This document shows positions 27,384-51,038 of a DNA stretch of 64,000 bases, in pieces (the stretch's first letter is position 1; each line of letters opens with the position of its first letter). A model generated the notes under the pieces. It ran no database searches and was not told where the DNA came from. It saw only the letters and a list, made by a program, of their open reading frames with translations. This DNA comes from an uncultured Bacteroidia bacterium (GTDB taxonomy: Bacteria > Bacteroidota > Bacteroidia > Bacteroidales > UBA932). The stretch is taken from assembly GCA_902792815.1 (NCBI GenBank), contig CADBAY010000005.1, forward strand, positions 44,504-108,503, read 5' to 3'. A program made the translations under genes and the position numbers.

Positions 27384-28421
27384 ATGAAAAAATTGTTTTT
27401 GATTGCGGCTGCCCTGCTTGTGGGCTTTATGGCTGCGGCACAAGAAGAAGAGACTCCTAATTACGGATATAAAGAAGGCGCTTTTGCGAGCGTCCCCAAG
27501 GTGGGAGCTTACATTATCGGTTCTTATAAATACAGCGACAAAGAAGGCGCCAACGGCGGCCCCGGTTTCAATGCCCGCTTGATCCGTGCGTATGTTGACG
27601 GTAGCATCTACCATCAGTTCAACTACAGGGTCCAGCTCCAGTTCAACGGTGGCCCTCACGTCAAGGATTTCTATGTGGAGTGGGCCAAGTACAAGTTCTT
27701 CTCCGTCAAGATGGGTCAGTTCAAGAGGGCCTTCACCTTCGAGAACCCTATGAACCCCTGGGACGTAGGAGCAGGCGACTTCTCCTTCCTGGTGCAGAAA
27801 ATGGCCGGTATGGGCGACCGTCTGGGCGAGGCCAACATGGGCGGACGTGACCAGGGTATCCAGATCCAGGGTGACTTCCTTCCCGTCGGCAAAGACGAGC
27901 ACCCTCTCTTCCACTATCAGCTCGGATTGTGGAACGGCCAGGGTATCAACGTGACCGACAAAGACCTCAAGAAAGATATCATCGGAACCTTCCAGGTGCA
28001 GCCCATCAAGGGCCTCAAGCTGGGCGTGTTCGGATGGAAGGGTAACTGGATCGACGGCGAAGGCAACGACCTCAAGCGTGAGAGAATCAGCGCCGGCGTG
28101 TCCTTCGACCGCAACAACTGGACATTCCGCAGCGAATATGCTACTGCAATCGCCGGTGAAAAGGCCCAGAGCGGCCCGGCCGATGCCCTTTACGTTACTG
28201 TGGGAGTGCCTGTTACCGATTGGTTCAAGGTGTATGCCAAGTGGGATGAGTTCCGCTCTGCGGCAACCGCCGAGACCAGCCACGACATGTATTCCTGCAT
28301 AGCCAACTTCCGTCTGCACAAGAACCTTAATTTCCAGCTGGAGTATCGTTACCACAACGACATGCTCTATACCGGGCGTCACTATAACGAAATCTGGTTC
28401 GAGACTTACATCAGGTGGTAA
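27384..28421 (+). CDS. OprO/OprP-like porin
   Basis: Signal peptide; RLIRAYVDG, MGQFKRAFTFEN, GRDQGIQ; C-terminal Trp; 1 nt after the DASS gene. Confidence 0.8.
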   Translation: MKKLFLIAAALLVGFMAAAQEEETPNYGYKEGAFASVPKVGAYIIGSYKYSDKEGANGGPGFNARLIRAYVDGSIYHQFNYRVQLQFNGGPHVKDFYVEWAKYKFFSVKMGQFKRAFTFENPMNPWDVGAGDFSFLVQKMAGMGDRLGEANMGGRDQGIQIQGDFLPVGKDEHPLFHYQLGLWNGQGINVTDKDLKKDIIGTFQVQPIKGLKLGVFGWKGNWIDGEGNDLKRERISAGVSFDRNNWTFRSEYATAIAGEKAQSGPADALYVTVGVPVTDWFKVYAKWDEFRSAATAETSHDMYSCIANFRLHKNLNFQLEYRYHNDMLYTGRHYNEIWFETYIRW

Positions 28422-28477
28422 TGATTTGATTTTACTGCCTGCCGGCCGTCTGCGCCCACGCAGTAAAATTAAATCAT
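28421..28477. repeat. 18-bp AT-rich inverted repeat with a 21-nt spacer (terminator or operator)
   Basis: ATGATTTGATTTTACTGC (28421-28438) / GCAGTAAAATTAAATCAT (28460-28477), one G-T pair. Confidence 0.7.
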
Positions 28478-28516
28478 AACTTGAAATAGACCTGTCATAC
28501 TTTGCATTATTATCAG

Positions 28517-28524
28517 TATATTTG
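28517..28524 (+). promoter_or_regulatory. -7 element (TAtaTTTG) for addB
   Basis: Exact consensus 6 nt above the ATG at 28531. Confidence 0.6.
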
Positions 28525-28530
28525 TAATGT

Positions 28531-31293
28531 ATGACACCGTTCCTGAAACAAGTAGCCAAACACTATTATAATGGAGCCGGCGACATAAGCCGGCTCTGTT
28601 TTGTTTTCCCCAACCGCAGGGCACTGCGGTTTTTCGAGCATTATCTCGGACAGGAAATAGCTGCCTCGGGCTCCGGCCCGGTGATCAGCCCGCAGCTGTT
28701 CACTATGAACGACTTCTTCTACCATGCCACCTCCGAGACTCCGTCCGACCGCATCCCCCTGCTGCTGGAGCTTTACAGTTGCTACAAGGCCTTGAATCAT
28801 GCTGCCGAGCCGCTGGACGACTTTATCTTCTGGGGCGACACTCTGCTGGGCGATTTCGACGATGTGGACAAGTATCTCGTGGACCCGGAGCAGCTCTTTA
28901 CCAATGTTACGGATATAAAGGAGATGCAGGACGATTACTCCTATCTATCATCTTCCCAGAGGGAGGCCATCCTGCATTTCGTGGACCATTTCAAGTCTTC
29001 GGGAGCCGTTAAAGAAGGCTTCCTGAGCATCTGGCGCATACTTCTTCCGCTGTACCGCTCGTTCCGCGAAGCCCTTAAATCGAAGGGCATGTCGTACGAG
29101 GGTATGGTGTACCGAGAGCTTGCCGAAAAGCTTGAAGCCGGAAGCGCCGCTGCCATTGTGCAGGACCGCTTCCCGTGGTCGGAGCGCTTCGTCTTTGTGG
29201 GGCTCAACGCCCTTAACGAATGCGAAAAGGCACTGCTGCGCAAGCTCCATCGCGCCGGCCTTGCCGAGTTCTGCTGGGACTATCGCTCGAGTTTGATCAG
29301 TGACCCTCATAATAAGTCTTCTCTTTTCCTGCGGGACTTTACCATCGAATTTCCCAGCGCCTTCCGGCCCGACCCCGAAGGCCTTCCCGGGACGGAGTTC
29401 AACGTGCTCAGCGTACCCGGGGGCATAGCCCAGGCCAAGCAGCTCCCGCAGATTCTTGCCCGATGCACCGGGGCTCCCGGTATCGAAACGGCAGTGGTAC
29501 TGCCCGACGAGCAGTTGCTCATACCCGTGCTGAACTCCATCCCCGGGCATGTGGAGAAGCTCAATGTCACAATGGGCTATCCCATAGCGGGCAGCCAGAT
29601 GTGGACGCTCTTGAGCGACCTGGGCGCCCTTCAGCTCCACCTGAGGCAGAGCAACGGCGAGTGGCATTTCTACCATCGCCAACTATGGGCCGTGGTGTCC
29701 AATTCTATTGTCAAGTCGGTTCTGTCGGATAAAGGCAGGCAGCTGCTCGAGCAGTGCCGCAAAGACCGCAAGTATTATATCCCTCAGCGGGACCTGCAGG
29801 GCGATCCCGTGCTTGAAGTCCTGTTCCGCCCTGTCGTAACCGGTAGCGGCGCCGTGCCGACGGGGCCCGTTTGCCAGTGGCTCCAAGACGTGCTCTCAAC
29901 CCTTGGCCCGAGGCTCAAGACATTGGAGGATATGCAGTTCGAGCTCGATTTCGCCAAGTTGTGCTACGAGTCTGTAGGGCGCTTGCTCGCGTATAATCTG
30001 GAGCTTCAGCCCGCTTCGTTCTTCCGCCTTATCATGCAGGTGCTTTCCGGGGCTACGGTGCCATTCGAGGGCGAGCCGCTGGAAGGCCTGCAAATCATGG
30101 GACCGCTGGAGCTCCGTGCCATGGATTTCCAGAATCTCATCATACTCAGCTGCAACGAGGGCGTGTTCCCCAGGCGCTCGGTGAGCTCTTCGTTCATCCC
30201 TCCCGAGCTCCGAAAAGGCTTCGGCCTCCCTACATACGAGTACCAGGACGCTGTGTGGGCCTACTATTTTTACCGGATGATACAGCGCTGCTCGCGCGTG
30301 TGGATGGTGTACGATTCGCGCACCGAGGGGCTCAAGGGCGGCGAACCCAGCCGCTACCTGCGCCAGCTTGAGATGCATTTCGGCGTGAAATTCAATCACT
30401 TCGAGGCTCAGTCATCTCTGGGACGGGGGGAAGAAGACGGAGATATTCCAAAGACCGAAGCTGACATTCAGGCGCTGCGGGAGCAAAACCTGTCTGCCAG
30501 CGCCGTCAAGAGCTACCTTACTTGTCCCGTGCAGTTCTACTACTCCAAGGTGCAGGCTCTGGAAGCCCAAAAAGAGGTCAGCGAATCGCTCGATGCCGGA
30601 ATGTTCGGCACGGTACTGCACGCAGTCATGCAAGAGCTATATCCCCGGGGAACGGTGGCCGACGCTGCCTACATCGGCTCTCTGCTAAAGTCACAGGGCC
30701 GCATCAAGGAAATAGTAAACGGCAAGATATGCGAGGCGCTGAAAACCTTTGAAGTGAGCGGCCGGAACATTGTTTTCGCCGATGTCATCTGCAGTTATGT
30801 GGAGGCGGTGCTCAAGACCGATCTTGAGCAGGTGCGCTCCGGAGGCGCCATGCGCATATTCGGCGCCGAAAAGTTCGTCAAGCAGAGCATCAGGGGATTC
30901 AACTTTGTAGGTTACATCGACCGCATCGACAGCTCAAAGCAGGGAACCCTCCGCGTGGTGGATTACAAAACCGGGCGGGTGAATCCCGAAGACCTGGACT
31001 TCGGCAAAACGGGCGATATCCCTCAGATAGGCTTGCAATTGTATCTGTATAAGCGCCTTCTCTCTCCCGATTATCCCGGAGCGGATATTACGGGGGCTAT
31101 CTATCAGCCAGCTGCCATAATAGCGGGAGAGGGGGTTATCGCACACTCCCTCGACCAGGAGTTCTGCTCGCGCATGGACTCCGGGCTCGACTCCGTACTC
31201 GATGAGATCTGCGATCTTTCCGTTCCCTGGCAGCGTACCGACAAGCGGGACAAATGTGCTATGTGTGACTTTAGAGCTATCTGCGGACGATGA
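28531..31293 (+). CDS. addB: AddB-like subunit (inactive helicase fold plus PD-(D/E)XK nuclease)
   Basis: VFPNRRA, MGPLELRAMDF, YYFYRMIQR, LSASAVKSYLTCP, GYIDRID..VVDYKTG, C-terminal CAMCDFRAIC; ATGA-coupled to a UvrD helicase. Confidence 0.8.
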   Translation: MTPFLKQVAKHYYNGAGDISRLCFVFPNRRALRFFEHYLGQEIAASGSGPVISPQLFTMNDFFYHATSETPSDRIPLLLELYSCYKALNHAAEPLDDFIFWGDTLLGDFDDVDKYLVDPEQLFTNVTDIKEMQDDYSYLSSSQREAILHFVDHFKSSGAVKEGFLSIWRILLPLYRSFREALKSKGMSYEGMVYRELAEKLEAGSAAAIVQDRFPWSERFVFVGLNALNECEKALLRKLHRAGLAEFCWDYRSSLISDPHNKSSLFLRDFTIEFPSAFRPDPEGLPGTEFNVLSVPGGIAQAKQLPQILARCTGAPGIETAVVLPDEQLLIPVLNSIPGHVEKLNVTMGYPIAGSQMWTLLSDLGALQLHLRQSNGEWHFYHRQLWAVVSNSIVKSVLSDKGRQLLEQCRKDRKYYIPQRDLQGDPVLEVLFRPVVTGSGAVPTGPVCQWLQDVLSTLGPRLKTLEDMQFELDFAKLCYESVGRLLAYNLELQPASFFRLIMQVLSGATVPFEGEPLEGLQIMGPLELRAMDFQNLIILSCNEGVFPRRSVSSSFIPPELRKGFGLPTYEYQDAVWAYYFYRMIQRCSRVWMVYDSRTEGLKGGEPSRYLRQLEMHFGVKFNHFEAQSSLGRGEEDGDIPKTEADIQALREQNLSASAVKSYLTCPVQFYYSKVQALEAQKEVSESLDAGMFGTVLHAVMQELYPRGTVADAAYIGSLLKSQGRIKEIVNGKICEALKTFEVSGRNIVFADVICSYVEAVLKTDLEQVRSGGAMRIFGAEKFVKQSIRGFNFVGYIDRIDSSKQGTLRVVDYKTGRVNPEDLDFGKTGDIPQIGLQLYLYKRLLSPDYPGADITGAIYQPAAIIAGEGVIAHSLDQEFCSRMDSGLDSVLDEICDLSVPWQRTDKRDKCAMCDFRAICGR

Positions 31294-47611: not shown

Positions 47612-47638
47612 CAAATATAATACTTTTTTTTATCTTTG
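47612..47638. promoter_or_regulatory. Back-to-back -7 elements (minus 47612-47619 TAtaTTTG; plus 47631-47638 TAtcTTTG)
   Basis: Exact consensus matches between DUF4290 and the kinase-S26-PqqD-ABC operon. Confidence 0.65.
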
Positions 47639-47662: not shown

Positions 47663-48553
47663 ATGACCAAACACTATAAAGTGGCGGGGCATGTGTTCTC
47701 ACTCTCCGTTCCCGAATCCTGTACCCTCTGGCCCAGGCTGACTCAGTATGAGCCCTTTGAGGTGCCCGAGGGCAGCGGAGAGCCGCTCTTCAACCTTGAG
47801 CTCGTAAGGGATACCTATGAGCCGCTCGCAGACAGGGAGCTTGTGTACGACGCTCCCACCGAGGAAGGGGAGACGGTTATCAAGCTTTATCATAACGGGG
47901 ATGGAGGCTGGGACTTCGACATGTCTCCGGACAAGAACATACCCTTCCGCTCGCATATGCGCAGCACGGAGGATTTCAGCAGCGCGGTGCTTATGCTTGA
48001 CAACCGCAAGGTGTCGGAGGCACTGTTCGGCATCAACAATTCGCTGATGCTCCTTTTCGCTTTCCGTACCGCTCCGCTCGATACCCTTGAGATGCACGCC
48101 TCCATGGTGGGCAACTCCGGCAAGGCTTTCTTGTTCCTGGCCCGCAGCGGTACGGGAAAAAGCACGCACAGCAGCCTCTGGCTGGAGCATGTCCCCGGCA
48201 CTGAACTTATGAACGACGATAACCCCATCGTGCGGGTTTGGCCGGACGGACGCATCATCGCTTACGGGTCTCCCTGGAGCGGCAAAACTCCCTGCTACCG
48301 TAATGTAGAGGCCCCGGTAGGCGCTTTTGTGCGCATCCGCCGCTGCCCCGAAAACAAGATCGCGCCCCTTGGGCTGCTGGAATCGTACGCCCTGCTCTAT
48401 TCGTCCAGCTCGGGTTTTAAGGCCGACAAGGCAATAGCCGACGGGCTGCATTCCACCCTCGAAAGAATAGTAACCACAACACCTTGCTACGTGCTTGACT
48501 GCCGTCCCGACGAGGAAGCGGCCAGGGTGTGCTCCGCTGAAGTGCTGAAATGA
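47663..48553 (+). CDS. HprK-related / PEPCK-like P-loop kinase
   Basis: HASMV, LFLARSGTGKST (Walker A), LMNDD, GSPWSGK. Confidence 0.75.
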   Translation: MTKHYKVAGHVFSLSVPESCTLWPRLTQYEPFEVPEGSGEPLFNLELVRDTYEPLADRELVYDAPTEEGETVIKLYHNGDGGWDFDMSPDKNIPFRSHMRSTEDFSSAVLMLDNRKVSEALFGINNSLMLLFAFRTAPLDTLEMHASMVGNSGKAFLFLARSGTGKSTHSSLWLEHVPGTELMNDDNPIVRVWPDGRIIAYGSPWSGKTPCYRNVEAPVGAFVRIRRCPENKIAPLGLLESYALLYSSSSGFKADKAIADGLHSTLERIVTTTPCYVLDCRPDEEAARVCSAEVLK

Positions 48554-49008
48554 AAACGAGCAAGGTAGTACTGCCCAATGCGGTTATGCTGGGCGAGGTT
48601 TCGAGGTTCCTGGACGAGGGCAAGTCGGTGATTATCGCCACCAAGGGCTCCAGCATGTCCCCATTCATTCGGGGCGAACGCGACAGCGTGGAGCTGCTCA
48701 AGATGCCCGACGTGGAAGTGGGGGATATTGTGCTTTGCCAGCTGACTCCCGGGCACTATGTGCTCCACCGTATCAACGCCATCGCGGGAGAGCGCATACG
48801 CCTCAAGGGCGACGGTAACCTCGACGCTACCGAGTTTTGTACCAAGGCCGATGTATGCGGCACGGTGACAGCCATACTCCGCAGGGGAGAGAAACGCATC
48901 GACTGCACCACCCCCGGCTTCAAGCGCAGGAGCCGCCTGTGGGTGGGCGCGCCAAGGATTATAAGGCGCTATGCATTAGGAATTTACAGAAGAATTAAGA
49001 TATTATGA
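48550..49008 (+). CDS. S24/S26-family peptidase, no membrane anchor
   Basis: KGSSMSPF (catalytic Ser), GDIVL, VLHRI, KGDGN; ATGA overlap. Confidence 0.8.
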   Translation: MKTSKVVLPNAVMLGEVSRFLDEGKSVIIATKGSSMSPFIRGERDSVELLKMPDVEVGDIVLCQLTPGHYVLHRINAIAGERIRLKGDGNLDATEFCTKADVCGTVTAILRRGEKRIDCTTPGFKRRSRLWVGAPRIIRRYALGIYRRIKIL

Positions 49009-49274
49009 AGACAGTACCTGGTTTTACACTTCGTCCGCTTGGAAAAGAGTTCATCATTACCGCCGAGAGCATCCAGAAGATTAATTTCAACAAGATGATT
49101 TCGCTCAACGAGTCGGCGGCTTTTCTGTGGAAAGAAGTTGACGGTAAGGAGTTTACCCCCGACGATCTGGCCGACTTGCTGGTGAGCCGCTACGAGGTAG
49201 ACCGCGAGACCGCGCTCAAAGATTCGGAGGCTATTGCCGCCAAGTGGATTGAAGCTGGAATAGTTACTGAGTAA
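49005..49274 (+). CDS. PqqD-family protein (RiPP recognition element)
   Basis: 89 aa; ISLNESAAFLWKEV...LADLLVSRYEVDRETALKDS winged-helix pattern. Confidence 0.85.
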   Translation: MKTVPGFTLRPLGKEFIITAESIQKINFNKMISLNESAAFLWKEVDGKEFTPDDLADLLVSRYEVDRETALKDSEAIAAKWIEAGIVTE

Positions 49275-50908
49275 TGAGACCTTTCCGCTCGTGTTTCAGG
49301 GGATTGATGCGCATGGTGCGCGGACAGAGGTTCCGCATACTTGTGAGCGTGTTGATCGGTTTGGTGGGCGTTGCCGCCTCCCTGGGATTCGTGTGGATAT
49401 CGAAGAAGGTCGTTGACGTGGCCACCGGAGATCCGGGGACACCCCTGACTCCTTCGGTGCTAATTATGCTCGGCATTATGCTCCTCCAGCTGTTTTGCCG
49501 GGTAGGAGGCCGTTATTGGGAGGGGCTGATTGTGGTAAAGGCGCAGAACGCCCTTCGCTCTTCGGCTTTCCGTAAGGTTATGTTCAGTACCTGGAGCGGT
49601 AAGGACCGTCTGCACAGCGGCGACACCGTTAACCGTCTGGAAGAGGATATCAGGGTAGTGGTGGACTTTATTTGCGTGAGCCTGCCCGACGCTCTTATTA
49701 CCCTTATCCAACTGCTTGGTGCATCGGTGTTTATATTCGTCCTTTCGCCCAACCTCGCCTGGATACTGCTGCTTATTATGCCCGTGGCAGTGCTGTGCAG
49801 CCGCCTTTTCTTCAAGAAGCTGCGTGCTCTGACCGGAGAGATCCGCTCGGGTGACGCCCGTGTGCAGGGCCATATACAGGAGAATACGCAGCGCCGTGTG
49901 CTGGTGCGTATGCTCGGGGCGACGGGGCGTGTCATCGAAAAGCTGGGCGGATTGCAGGATTATGTGTACGGAAAGACTGTTACCCGCCTGAATTACAATG
50001 CGATTTCGCGCGGTTTCATGCAGCTGGGCTTCTCGGCTGGATATGCCCTGGTTTTCCTGTGGGGCTTGTTCGGGCTGCGTGACGGGACAATAACTTACGG
50101 CACCATGGTGGCTTTCCTCCAGCTGGTGGGGCAGGTCCAGCGCCCGGTTGCAGGCATTGCTTTGCAGATTCCGGCGTTTATACGCGCTCTTTCTTCTGAA
50201 GACCGTCTTCTCGACCTTGTTGAGGCGCCCCAGGAAGAAGAGGGGAGCGATATTGTGCTGCAGGGCGCTCCGGGTGTAAAGGTTGAGGGAGTGAGCTTTA
50301 CTTATGAGGGGGTCAACAACCCTGTGGTGCGCGGGCTTGACTTTGATTTTACTCCCGGTTCCATGACCGCCATTATCGGTTCGACTGGTGCGGGCAAATC
50401 TACTTTGGTGCGTGTGATCATGGCTCTTCTGCAGCCCGACTGCGGAACCATTACGCTTTACGACGGTACCGGTGCCCGTGTGCCTTCGGGCGTGAGGACG
50501 CGTTGTAATTTTATGTATGTTCCGCAGGGTAACTCTTTGATGAGCGGTACTATACGTGAGAATCTCCTGCTGGCCAAGCCCGATGCTGATGAGGATGAAT
50601 TAAGGGAGGTGCTGCATTTGGCGGCGGCCGATTTCGTGTATGAGTTGCAGGATGGCCTGGAGACTACTTGTGCTGAGATTGGTGCGGGCTTGAGTGAGGG
50701 GCAGGCGCAGAGGATTGCTATTGCGCGTGCTTTGTTGCGGCCGGGTGGGATCCTGGTTCTTGACGAGGCTACTTCGGCGCTTGATGCTGATACTGAGCTT
50801 GAGCTTTTGGAGCGGCTTGGGGCTCGGTTCCGCGGGACCAAGACCATCCTTTGCATTACCCATCGTCCGGCGGCGACTTCTTATGCCGATAAAGTTTTGA
50901 AGCTATAG
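49274..50908 (+). CDS. ABC exporter (fused TMD-NBD)
   Basis: TM helices; GSTGAGKS, LSEGQAQR, ILVLDEATSALD, ITHR. Confidence 0.93.
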   Translation: MRPFRSCFRGLMRMVRGQRFRILVSVLIGLVGVAASLGFVWISKKVVDVATGDPGTPLTPSVLIMLGIMLLQLFCRVGGRYWEGLIVVKAQNALRSSAFRKVMFSTWSGKDRLHSGDTVNRLEEDIRVVVDFICVSLPDALITLIQLLGASVFIFVLSPNLAWILLLIMPVAVLCSRLFFKKLRALTGEIRSGDARVQGHIQENTQRRVLVRMLGATGRVIEKLGGLQDYVYGKTVTRLNYNAISRGFMQLGFSAGYALVFLWGLFGLRDGTITYGTMVAFLQLVGQVQRPVAGIALQIPAFIRALSSEDRLLDLVEAPQEEEGSDIVLQGAPGVKVEGVSFTYEGVNNPVVRGLDFDFTPGSMTAIIGSTGAGKSTLVRVIMALLQPDCGTITLYDGTGARVPSGVRTRCNFMYVPQGNSLMSGTIRENLLLAKPDADEDELREVLHLAAADFVYELQDGLETTCAEIGAGLSEGQAQRIAIARALLRPGGILVLDEATSALDADTELELLERLGARFRGTKTILCITHRPAATSYADKVLKL

Positions 50909-50910
50909 GT

Positions 50911-51038
50911 CCCCGTTGGCTGACGCCGCCCGGAAACTTCGCTTCGCTCATCCCTCCCGCTGCACTTCGTTTGCGGGCCCCTCCCGTTCACGTGGTCACG
51001 GGCGGCCACGGTTTCCCCAGAGGCGTCAGCCACCGGGG
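50911..51038. mobile_element. 128-nt palindromic MITE/REP-like element between convergent genes
   Basis: 17-nt arms CCCCGTTGGCTGACGCC / GGCGTCAGCCACCGGGG (1 mismatch), inner GGAAAC/GTTTCC, core GCTTCGC...GGGCCCCTCCC plus a hairpin. Confidence 0.65.

Follow-up and report, generated by a model that had tools for sequence, protein, structure and literature searches.

An LPP-like four-gene cassette and a dispersed family of candidate peptide substrates in a rumen Bacteroidales genome

Background

Linear polyphosphorylated peptides (LPP) were described in 2026 from Bacillota only, the pathway being that of Paenibacillus alginolyticus DSM5050, encoded by lppA-K-B-S-D-N (Popov et al., Nat Commun 2026; PMC13381572). 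LPP clusters display a core of four domains, namely an HprK kinase, a discrete RRE, an SpI peptidase and an MsbA transporter (PMC13381572, text and supplement). LppK polyphosphorylates Ser3 of the core, and LppS (Ser29/His68/Asp93), which was described as homologous to SipW of B. subtilis, cuts the leader only if the RRE LppB is present; mutation of Ser29/His68/Asp93 abolished this cleavage, and the peptidase family of LppS was shown to replace B2 (PMC13381572). The LPP leader reads YxxPxVLxHQxIxFETxxS and LppA cores start with AQS or SQS (PMC13381572). Bacteroidota are not mentioned in the main text of that study; its supplement contains SpI-ABC fusions from Paludibacter and from a Porphyromonadaceae genome (SSN cluster 8), for which precursors were not determined, and the column headings of its Supplementary Data 1 indicate that genome-wide (unclustered) precursors were recorded for some Bacillota clusters (PMC13381572). 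Among lasso peptides, HprK-like kinases phosphorylate the C-terminal Ser of the paeninodin type, and PsmN was linked to glycosylation of pseudomycoidin (PMC7533575).

The cassette presented here, which was not covered by a 2023 paper on RiPP mining in Bacteroidales, is probably a rumen-Bacteroidales version of this phosphorylate-trim-export system first described in soil bacilli in 2026. It probably works as an LPP-type machine for RiPP maturation and export, acting in trans on precursors encoded elsewhere. Its substrates, not encoded alongside, are apparently the products of about twenty very small, unannotated genes that are dispersed through the genome, nearly all in front of a surface-lipoprotein gene.

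Results

Layout and conservation of the cassette

The cassette occupies positions 47663-50908 (+) of the window, i.e. of the whole stretch of 64,000 nucleotides that was analysed, and consists of four overlapping genes preceded by a promoter-like motif:

47631..47638, + strand: Bacteroidetes-type -7 promoter motif TATCTTTG (TAnnTTTG), 25 nt 5' of the first ATG; consensus match only
47663..48553, + strand: gene 1, kinase-like P-loop protein of PEPCK/HprK fold, 296 aa (model fold, Walker A)
48550..49008, + strand: gene 2, soluble clan-SF serine peptidase of archaeal/ER type, 152 aa (motifs, model fold, LppS homology)
49005..49274, + strand: gene 3, discrete PqqD-type RiPP recognition element, 89 aa (PF05402)
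49274..50908, + strand: gene 4, MsbA-like ABC half-transporter (transmembrane and nucleotide-binding domain), 544 aa (PF00664, PF00005)

Start and stop codons overlapped at all three junctions (ATGA, ATGA and TAATG), in line with the operon-like run of four genes recognised in the initial annotation. The -7 element which that annotation assigned to the operon was indeed present, but it counts as a consensus match only, because the window contains 32 copies of the motif where 20.4 are expected. Neighbouring genes were DUF4290 and ApbE, at distances of 48 and 135 nt, and no cyclase, radical-SAM enzyme, nucleotidyltransferase or short precursor ORF adjoined the cassette, as had already been observed. 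Neither a lasso cyclase (Asn-synthetase-like) nor a B2 protease was encoded in or beside it; a search of the whole genome for B2-type proteases (PF13471) returned a single match, below threshold and containing stop codons.

All four genes were found in 72 out of 80 related loci from different species, and order and strand were identical in 70; this recurrence across species places the arrangement beyond chance. Housekeeping genes (DUF4290, FtsK, ApbE) surrounded the cassette in 44 of the 80 loci. Phocaeicola acetigenes KGMB11183 (locus L105) is a carrier that can be cultured. Relatives of the peptidase were encoded in at least 564 matched stretches of a collection with a single genome for each species, which indicates that LPP-like machinery is frequent among the Bacteroidales of rumen and gut. 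The only small conserved ORFs encountered up to 2.5 kb away from the 80 cassettes were PqqD and antisense artefacts. Three close relatives of the cassette (L001, L053 and L054) lacked PqqD, and they count against an LPP-type machine since LppS needs its RRE in vitro.

Gene 2, a candidate leader peptidase

Motifs GxSMxPFI, VLHR and GDGNL, as well as residues Ser35, His73 and Asp88, were invariant in 22 homologues of gene 2. No hydrophobic or transmembrane segment was predicted (maximal 19-residue Kyte-Doolittle mean of 0.92), Pfam models S26 (E=0.018) and S24 (E=0.054) both remained below threshold, and Pfam-type domain searches detected no DNA-binding domain. Compared with PDB sequences, genes 1 and 2 gave nothing significant, whether as single sequences or as profiles; fold searches alone produced matches. 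The model of gene 2 (pLDDT 91.5) contained one helix at the N-terminus (residues 10-22) and two at the C-terminus, both basic, and its fold matched LexA (S24) and the S26 signal peptidases SipA and SpsB. With His73 at the Lys position and no membrane anchor, gene 2 is not a bacterial type I signal peptidase (S26A); with neither a Ser/Lys dyad nor a self-cleaving repressor architecture, it is not a LexA-like S24 protein either. The absent anchor and the His of VLHR at the place of the catalytic Lys had both been read correctly beforehand, but the latter is no oddity, His being normal in signal peptidases of archaeal/ER type (SipW-like).

Comparison with LppS gave a BLASTP E-value of 8e-9 (29% identity over 90 aa) and an hhalign probability of 96.7%. 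Residues S35, H73 and D88 aligned with the catalytic S29, H68 and D93 of LppS, and both proteins were devoid of transmembrane segments. By sequence, gene 2 is thus rated a direct homologue of the LPP leader peptidase, which supports the initial proposal of a soluble S26-type enzyme that may act as an RRE-dependent leader peptidase.

Genes 1, 3 and 4

The AF2 model of gene 1 (pLDDT 94.5) matched ATP-PEPCK (E=1.3e-6) and HprK/P (E=2.7e-5) in Foldseek, and around the P-loop its sequence resembled ATP-PEPCK and HprK equally. Residues H145 and S147, the Walker A motif S162-G-T-G-K-S-T168, N184-D-D186 and G202-x-P-W-S-G-K-T209 were invariant in the alignment. The protein was classed as kinase-like by its fold, its Walker A motif and a faint match to TIGR04352 (E=0.004); by position and modelled fold it is the presumed counterpart of LppK. 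Gene 1 was single-copy in the genome, and in two related genomes (G206 and G212) it was fused to the peptidase in one ORF.

Gene 3, which overlaps both of its neighbours, was the sole PqqD gene of the genome (PF05402, E=2.8e-16). Its best PDB relative was the lasso RRE TfuB1 and its match to LppB reached E=4e-4 in BLASTP; sequence similarity designates it as the probable LppB counterpart. Gene 4 matched PF00664 (ABC_membrane, E=1.9e-32) and PF00005 (ABC_tran, E=7.7e-25), and its top NCBIfam match was MsbA (3.8e-69), under the cut-off of that model. Three segments attained the hydrophobicity threshold, the first beginning near residue 19, and no peptidase domain was detected in domain searches. 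It is, judging from these matches, the counterpart of LppD; an MsbA-like pump of a diderm delivers to the periplasm only, a point against the proposed export machine.

Dispersed YxxP peptides

A precursor encoded elsewhere, with a YxxP-like leader, had been anticipated in the initial annotation together with a genome search for short ORFs sharing a leader. Such a search uncovered about 21 small ORFs of 38-58 aa that formed a single family with a YxxP leader. They open with a Lys-rich stretch that precedes YxxP; a Ser follows the Tyr at a distance of 19 residues, and W or F closes an acidic tail. Y, P and this Ser were invariant in the 21 peptides, and predicted cores began with CQS, AQS or CES. 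A representative peptide (contig C14:39489-39647) reads MNKIKELYSSPTTKILVVRFEGMLCQSQYGTAGSAGGIMTVNNLGEGDDDLY. In leave-one-out tests, 15 of the 21 peptides were recovered at E<=1e-3, and reversed ORFs gave two matches at E<=1. Pfam and NCBIfam contained no model for these peptides; about 20 real genes per genome are accordingly left uncovered by the protein-family libraries searched.

At least 18 of the ORFs immediately preceded a gene for a paralogous surface lipoprotein, with gaps of 0-15 nt, and nearly all headed such an operon. The N-terminal domain of the lipoproteins had no sequence match in the PDB and displayed faint matches to Mfa_like_1 and Mfa2, in one of 14 members each; an assignment as fimbrillins was dropped on these grounds. 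In the source genome the peptides were unlinked to the cassette, and such a peptide occurred within 10 kb in just five of the 80 cassette loci. Equivalent peptides nonetheless adjoined the cassette in at least nine other genomes (L018, L022, L023, L081, L085, L087, L112, L114 and L132).

Aligned by hhalign with nine LppA precursors, the family matched in the MKK..YxxP stretch only (probability 22.7%), and the FET cleavage motif of LppA was absent from it; cleavage and phosphorylation sites are for this reason proposed by analogy, not by homology.

Other candidates were rejected. A strict regular expression for precursors gave 14 matches, about 30 being expected by chance. A profile of distant-type peptides from L027, L030 and L034 (YxKPxhxxIxID...MMT type) detected nothing in the source genome, and the candidate at C11:62454-62564 was at chance level (E=1.4-4.8).

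Phylogenetic profile

An order-wide profile of the peptides was abandoned as the model was too genome-specific (matches in two of 201 genomes) and was replaced by a sample of 81 genomes of the same family, 35 with and 46 without the cassette. The peptides followed the cassette in this profile, a type of comparison also envisaged at the outset: they were present in 17 of the 35 cassette genomes and in none of the 46 others (Fisher p=3.5e-8). At genus level the counts were nine out of 21 with and zero out of 16 without the cassette (p=0.002), and in two genera the cassette-bearing members had peptides and the cassette-free congeners had none. No peptide was detected by the model in the remaining 18 cassette genomes, a result that says little because the model is very specific to the source genome.

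Genes of the NTP_transf_5 type (LppN-like) were present in 25 of the 35 cassette genomes, ten lacking them, and in three of the 46 genomes without cassette (p=6e-10). They were absent from the cassette of the source genome and fell within five of the 80 related loci. The source genome carried two copies, unlinked to the cassette and each inside a polysaccharide locus among Wzz/GNVR, Poly_export, Bac_transf, GT4 and GHMP kinase genes; a peptide module lay some 2 kb away from one of them. The presence of these unlinked nucleotidyltransferase genes implies that the product may carry more than phosphate.

Discussion

Proposed pathway

The cassette is regarded as an LPP-type machine because of its gene set, which corresponds to lppK-S-B-D, its conserved order, the homology of its peptidase to LppS and the kinase-peptidase fusions; the peptide family, the profile over 81 genomes and the LppA-like leader design argue for its action on the dispersed peptides. 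According to this scheme, the PqqD protein would bind the YxxP leader of a precursor of 38-58 aa, and the PEPCK/HprK-fold enzyme would phosphorylate the invariant Ser 19 residues after the Tyr, possibly adding several phosphates by analogy with Ser3 of LppA. The Ser35/His73/Asp88 peptidase, docked on the complex of RRE and leader, would then remove the leader, the cut most likely falling two residues before the invariant Ser and yielding a core that starts with [C/A]-[Q/E]-S; a cut behind QS is the alternative. Passage of the acidic core through the inner membrane would finally be the task of the MsbA-like half-transporter. The exported phosphorylated peptide suggested in the initial annotation is favoured as the probable product by homology to the LPP system and by comparative genomics.

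Alternative readings

The pathway could belong to cell-surface glycan biology, with phospho-Ser as a handle that the capsule-locus NTP_transf_5 extends with a nucleotide or sugar, and with a peptide acting at the envelope alongside its co-transcribed lipoprotein instead of being freely secreted. The association of NTP_transf_5 with the cassette (25/35 versus 3/46) and the position of both copies of the genome in polysaccharide loci, one near a peptide module, speak for it, as do the Ser kinases of paeninodin-type clusters and the link of PsmN to glycosylation (PMC7533575). Moreover, the LPP clusters of Bacilli lie within capsule loci, and an outside partner seemed necessary for LppN (PMC13381572). 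The reading is nevertheless judged improbable: the genes around the cassette were of housekeeping and not of glycan type in 44 of 80 loci, ten cassette genomes managed without NTP_transf_5, the activity of this enzyme family is putative, and deletion of lppN caused no change in a heterologous host (PMC13381572).

Somewhat less probable still is a peptide-maturation machine that does not act on the dispersed YxxP peptides. In that case these peptides would serve the lipoprotein operons as upstream leader ORFs or small partners. Common descent would explain why they co-occur with the cassette, and the actual precursor would have escaped notice. Such a situation would account for the tight coupling to lipoprotein genes, the rarity of linkage to the cassette (none in the source genome, five of 80 loci within 10 kb) and the weak similarity to LppA outside YxxP. 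It fits poorly with the other genomes, at least nine in number, in which peptides of this type adjoin the cassette, and with the absence of such peptides from all 46 cassette-free genomes, congeners of peptide carriers included. Moreover, the constancy of Tyr, Pro and Ser and of the distances between them suits an RRE-guided substrate and is unexpected for a mere upstream ORF.

Decay of a lasso-peptide cluster to an inactive cassette, by loss of its cyclase and B2 protease, is very improbable: PqqD, an HprK-like kinase and an ABC exporter do occur together in paeninodin-type clusters, but relatives of the peptidase span at least 564 stretches (one genome per species) with invariant catalytic residues and tightly coupled genes, the genome has no B2-type protease apart from the interrupted sub-threshold match, and the peptidase comes from the family shown to replace B2 (PMC13381572).

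Possible significance

If the LPP-type machine acts on the dispersed peptides, the substrates of this branch would constitute a large unannotated family of micro-genes tied to surface-lipoprotein operons, instead of single cluster-encoded peptides, and its accessory transferase sits in capsule loci. The surface of major gut symbiont cells could thereby be linked, in a testable way, to a new RiPP class. It is conceivable, though rather unlikely, that in the Bacteroidales of rumen and gut one LPP-type set serves twenty or more dispersed precursors, each co-transcribed with a paralogous surface lipoprotein, and that the phosphopeptides, decorated by the capsule-locus NTP_transf_5, act at the envelope with their cognate lipoproteins (e.g. 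as ligands, anchors or primers). This would represent an undescribed kind of cell-surface modification system and not a secreted antibiotic or pheromone.

Comparison with known systems

Lasso clusters of the paeninodin/pseudomycoidin type (A, C, B1, B2, D, K, N) resemble the cassette in their PqqD-type B1 RRE reading a YxxP leader, their HprK-like kinase directed at a precursor Ser, their ABC exporter and an optional enzyme of NTP_transf_5 type. Unlike them, the cassette has neither a cyclase nor a transglutaminase-like B2 protease; a serine peptidase of another clan would act on the leader, and the product is predicted to be linear. With SipW, Sec11 and archaeal type I signal peptidases (S26B), gene 2 shares the clan-SF fold and Ser/His(/Asp) in replacement of Ser/Lys. 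It differs from these enzymes, which act on Sec signal peptides, by the absence of a membrane anchor and by its predicted cytoplasmic action on an RRE-presented leader.

Prochlorosin systems combine one set of maturation enzymes with many dispersed precursors of conserved leader and variable core, the same pattern being proposed here. Their chemistry is unrelated, with lanthionine rings formed by ProcM, and their precursors are not paired with lipoprotein genes.

LPP clusters resemble the cassette in their HprK/PEPCK-fold kinase, matched here by a kinase-like protein, and in their discrete PqqD RRE, MsbA-like exporter, soluble leader peptidase resembling archaeal-type Ser/His/Asp signal peptidases, and lack of a cyclase. 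Leaders of LppA and of the candidate precursors have in common the Lys-rich start, YxxP and a conserved Ser, located 18 (LPP) or 19 residues (here) after the Tyr, and the leader considered here is without the VLxHQxIxFET part. Hosts differ, being Bacillota for LPP and diderm Bacteroidota here, and the NTP transferase, which is in-cluster for LPP, is represented here by two copies in polysaccharide loci. The precursors differ as well: LPP clusters contain one to three of 35-200 aa, whereas the present genome harbors about 21 candidates of 38-58 aa, which are dispersed and nearly all head a surface-lipoprotein operon.

Organization of the cassette and its products

The cassette consisted of four genes on the forward strand, preceded by a promoter-like motif:

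47631-47638, + strand: TAnnTTTG motif (TATCTTTG), 25 nt ahead of the gene 1 ATG
47663-48553, + strand: gene 1, kinase-like, ORF of 296 aa
48550-49008, + strand: gene 2, peptidase, ORF of 152 aa
49005-49274, + strand: gene 3, PqqD, ORF of 89 aa
49274-50908, + strand: gene 4, ABC exporter, ORF of 544 aa

These ORF coordinates confirmed the co-directional set with overlapping junctions described in the initial annotation; genes 1/2, 2/3 and 3/4 were joined by ATGA, ATGA and TAATG, respectively. As for the -7 element attributed to the operon, TAnnTTTG was indeed present before gene 1, as a consensus match only (32 matches in the window versus 20 expected). A second TAnnTTTG (47612-47619, - strand) was found back to back with the first in the gap between gene 1 and the DUF4290 gene, and this pair would be consistent with divergent promoters. 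The DUF4290 gene, divergently oriented, lay 48 nt upstream of the cassette, and an ApbE gene, oriented convergently, 135 nt downstream; since a precursor ORF cannot fit into such gaps, the reported lack of a precursor-like ORF beside the cassette was borne out. The entire interval from the ABC stop codon to the apbE stop codon (50911-51038) was filled by a palindromic repeat, in which a simple scan detected no terminator-type hairpin with a T run.

Gene 3 encoded a PqqD-type recognition element (PF05402, E=2.8e-16), the sole one in this 2.37 Mb genome, and its nearest solved structure was the lasso RRE (RiPP recognition element) TfuB1. Gene 4 encoded an ABC half-transporter with transmembrane and ATPase parts; its scores lay under all curated cut-offs, the nearest models were of MsbA type and a domain model search found no peptidase domain in it. 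Gene 2 displayed sub-threshold matches only to S26 and S24 models. Its AlphaFold model (pLDDT 91.5) matched the clan-SF peptidases LexA, SipA and SpsB (E down to 1e-4), and the motifs GxSMxPFI, VLHR and GDGNL were invariant across 22 homologues. It contained no hydrophobic segment, in agreement with a peptidase devoid of a transmembrane anchor.

No Pfam family exceeded threshold for gene 1. Its model (pLDDT 94.5) matched ATP-dependent PEP carboxykinases and HPr kinase/phosphorylases, so that "kinase" is a call from predicted fold and context and not a family assignment. Invariant residues included HAS, the Walker A SGTGKST, NDD and GxPWSGKT. Kinase-like and peptidase domains were encoded by single ORFs in two other genomes (L146:3937-5448 in G206 and L147:1713-3182 in G212; 503 and 489 aa), and this fusion argues that the two proteins would act together. 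A 501 aa protein opening with a peptidase domain was encountered at locus L148 (G246).

Conservation and distribution of the cassette

Scanning a collection with one genome per species yielded at least 564 stretches matching gene 2. Of the best 80 loci, which were examined, all contained the kinase gene, 74 PqqD and 76 the ABC gene; 72 had all four genes, and order and strand were kept in 70. Five of the 80 carried an NTP_transf_5 gene between the PqqD and ABC genes. The DUF4290/FtsK neighbourhood was common to 44, the remaining ones occupying other settings in Candidatus Cryptobacteroides, Phocaeicola, Dysgonomonas and Muribaculaceae. Distant loci displayed the same four genes in shuffled orders. 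The peptidase was patchily distributed across the order (22 of 201 sampled genomes), was found in 35 out of 81 genomes of the family and is accessory, not housekeeping.

A divergent cassette from the same genus (L019 in G006; 27-41% identity) was located at a different locus in the order PqqD-ABC-kinase-peptidase, which points to a possible independent acquisition or replacement inside the genus. Three close relatives (L001, L053 and L054), from horse-faeces Bacteroidales MAGs of which one is named Candidatus Cryptobacteroides, combined the DUF4290/FtsK setting with kinase, peptidase and ABC genes, and had no PqqD gene. Records labelled Coprococcus eutactus and Oscillospiraceae (locus L078 and protein P0028) contained cassettes or peptidases 48-71% identical to Bacteroidales ones, with Bacteroidales-like neighbours at L078; mis-binned contigs are likelier here than transfer.

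A family of candidate precursor peptides

Small ORFs adjoining cassettes elsewhere (L018, L022, L023, L027, L030, L034, L081, L085, L087, L112 and L114) began with a Lys-rich segment, after which came YxxP and a stretch of hydrophobic and acidic residues. A profile built exclusively from peptides of other genomes placed two ORFs of the present genome in the top three of 32,070, at non-significant E-values. Iteration from these two gathered 21 ORFs (38-58 aa) spread over 14 contigs, none of them inside the window; the genome-wide set of short ORFs with a shared YxxP-like leader suggested earlier was thus found. Tyr, Pro and Ser were invariant, with Ser at Tyr+19 in nearly all; two hydrophobic residues and [C/A/M]-[Q/E] immediately preceded this Ser. 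The tail was acidic and Gly/Thr-rich, usually ending in W or F. In a leave-one-out search against all ORFs of the genome, 15 of the 21 were recovered at E<=1e-3, and a reversed-ORF control gave two matches at E<=1. Independent members occurred in 16 further genomes of the family (E down to 3e-10), and no Pfam or NCBIfam model covered these peptides. A second precursor type was observed between the PqqD and kinase genes of distant cassettes (L027:8220-8369, L030:8374-8502 and L034:10675-10860), with the pattern YxKPxhxxIxID...S-h-h-M-M-T and a Pro/Gly-rich core.

In a phylogenetic profile, the peptides tracked the cassette: 17 of the 81 family genomes were matched, all among the 35 with the cassette and none among the 46 without it (Fisher p=3.5e-8, a value that overstates independence owing to kinship among genomes). 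The peptide model was tuned to the genome of the window, so the 18 unmatched cassette-bearing genomes say little. Peptides were present in 9/21 genera with the cassette versus 0/16 without (p=0.002, likewise overstated by kinship), and in two genera the cassette-bearing member had peptides while congeners without cassette had none.

A lipoprotein gene (396-1250 aa) followed at least 18 of the 21 peptide ORFs at a distance of 0-15 nt, or its longest ORF nominally overlapped the peptide ORF. Fourteen of the 18 paired lipoproteins formed one BLAST cluster through a common N-terminal region with a W-x-E-G-D-x-I motif, followed by C-terminal GLUG, fn3, Big_3, BACON or GDSL-like domains. Since only 18 of the 43 members of this lipoprotein family in the genome came immediately after a peptide, and certain other members stood behind a peptide-lipoprotein pair in the same gene run, the peptides head lipoprotein operons instead of pairing with every paralogue. 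Such pairing was also present in other genera, and genome G221 displayed two pairs directly upstream of its cassette. A fimbrillin-like nature of the lipoproteins found no support beyond two faint matches.

On contig C9 (17824-27858; L126, L149), outside the window, two inverted copies of a module surrounded a 394 aa ATPase-like gene. Each comprised a peptide, a lipoprotein of 630-639 aa and a protein of 724-755 aa in which a vWA-like motif was recognized by eye. Beside them lay a recombinase-like gene (27968-28771), named from sequence only, and an NTP_transf_5/capsule locus. This arrangement might be recombining or phase-variable.

NTP_transf_5 genes

The cassette contained no NTP_transf_5 gene. 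The genome encoded two (PF14907), both inside polysaccharide synthesis/export loci:

C9:29617-30666, - strand: copy 1, adjoining Poly_export, a Wzz/GNVR tyrosine-kinase-type protein and a Gfo/Idh/MocA oxidoreductase
C12:55616-56737, + strand: copy 2, adjoining Bac_transf, a GT4 glycosyltransferase and a GHMP kinase

Copy 1 was ~2 kb from a peptide-lipoprotein module, the recombinase-like gene lying between. Across the 81 family genomes, NTP_transf_5 was found in 25/35 with the cassette versus 3/46 without (p=6e-10).

Comparison with LPP and lasso systems

Linear polyphosphorylated peptide (LPP) clusters of Bacillota, with the gene set lppA-K-B-S-D-N, were described by Popov et al. in 2026 (PMC13381572). 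There, the HprK-like kinase LppK adds several phosphates to core Ser3, and LppS, an archaeal-type SipW-like peptidase (S29/H68/D93), requires the RRE LppB for leader removal; an MsbA-like pump and an NTP transferase are also encoded, and the precursor leader reads YxxPxVLxHQxIxFETxxS. Gene 2 aligned with LppS (taken from Supplementary Data 1 of that paper) at E=8e-9, its family profile doing so with a probability of 96.7%, and Ser35/His73/Asp88 coincided with the LppS triad required by experiment. Gene 3 aligned weakly with LppB (E=4e-4).

The peptides resembled LppA in their Lys-rich start, YxxP and Ser (at +19, versus +18 in LppA), and in cores starting with CQS or AQS (AQS or SQS in LppA). 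By analogy, the leader would be cut just ahead of [C/A]-Q-S and that Ser phosphorylated; this is an analogy because only the YxxP region aligned with LppA profiles (probability 22.7%). Alternatively, the cut may fall after Ser; positions -3 and -1 would then carry small residues, the pattern typical of classical signal peptidases.

The main text of PMC13381572 makes no mention of Bacteroidota; its supplement lists Paludibacter and one Porphyromonadaceae genome as sources of SpI-ABC fusions, whose precursors are given as "not determined". A survey of RiPP clusters in Bacteroidales published in 2023 does not cover the cassette, and the genome encoded no lasso B2-type protease. LPP clusters of Bacilli are reported inside capsule loci (PMC13381572), which the NTP_transf_5 pattern echoes, and a role in envelope glycan biology is possible. 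In contrast to LPP clusters, precursors here were many, dispersed and paired with lipoproteins, the transferase genes were unlinked and located in polysaccharide loci, and the host is a diderm. Homology to the experimentally characterised LPP system and comparative genomics support the predicted mechanism of leader peptidase, kinase, RRE and export, and the cassette is best classed as a Bacteroidales form of the LPP pathway, with predicted chemistry.
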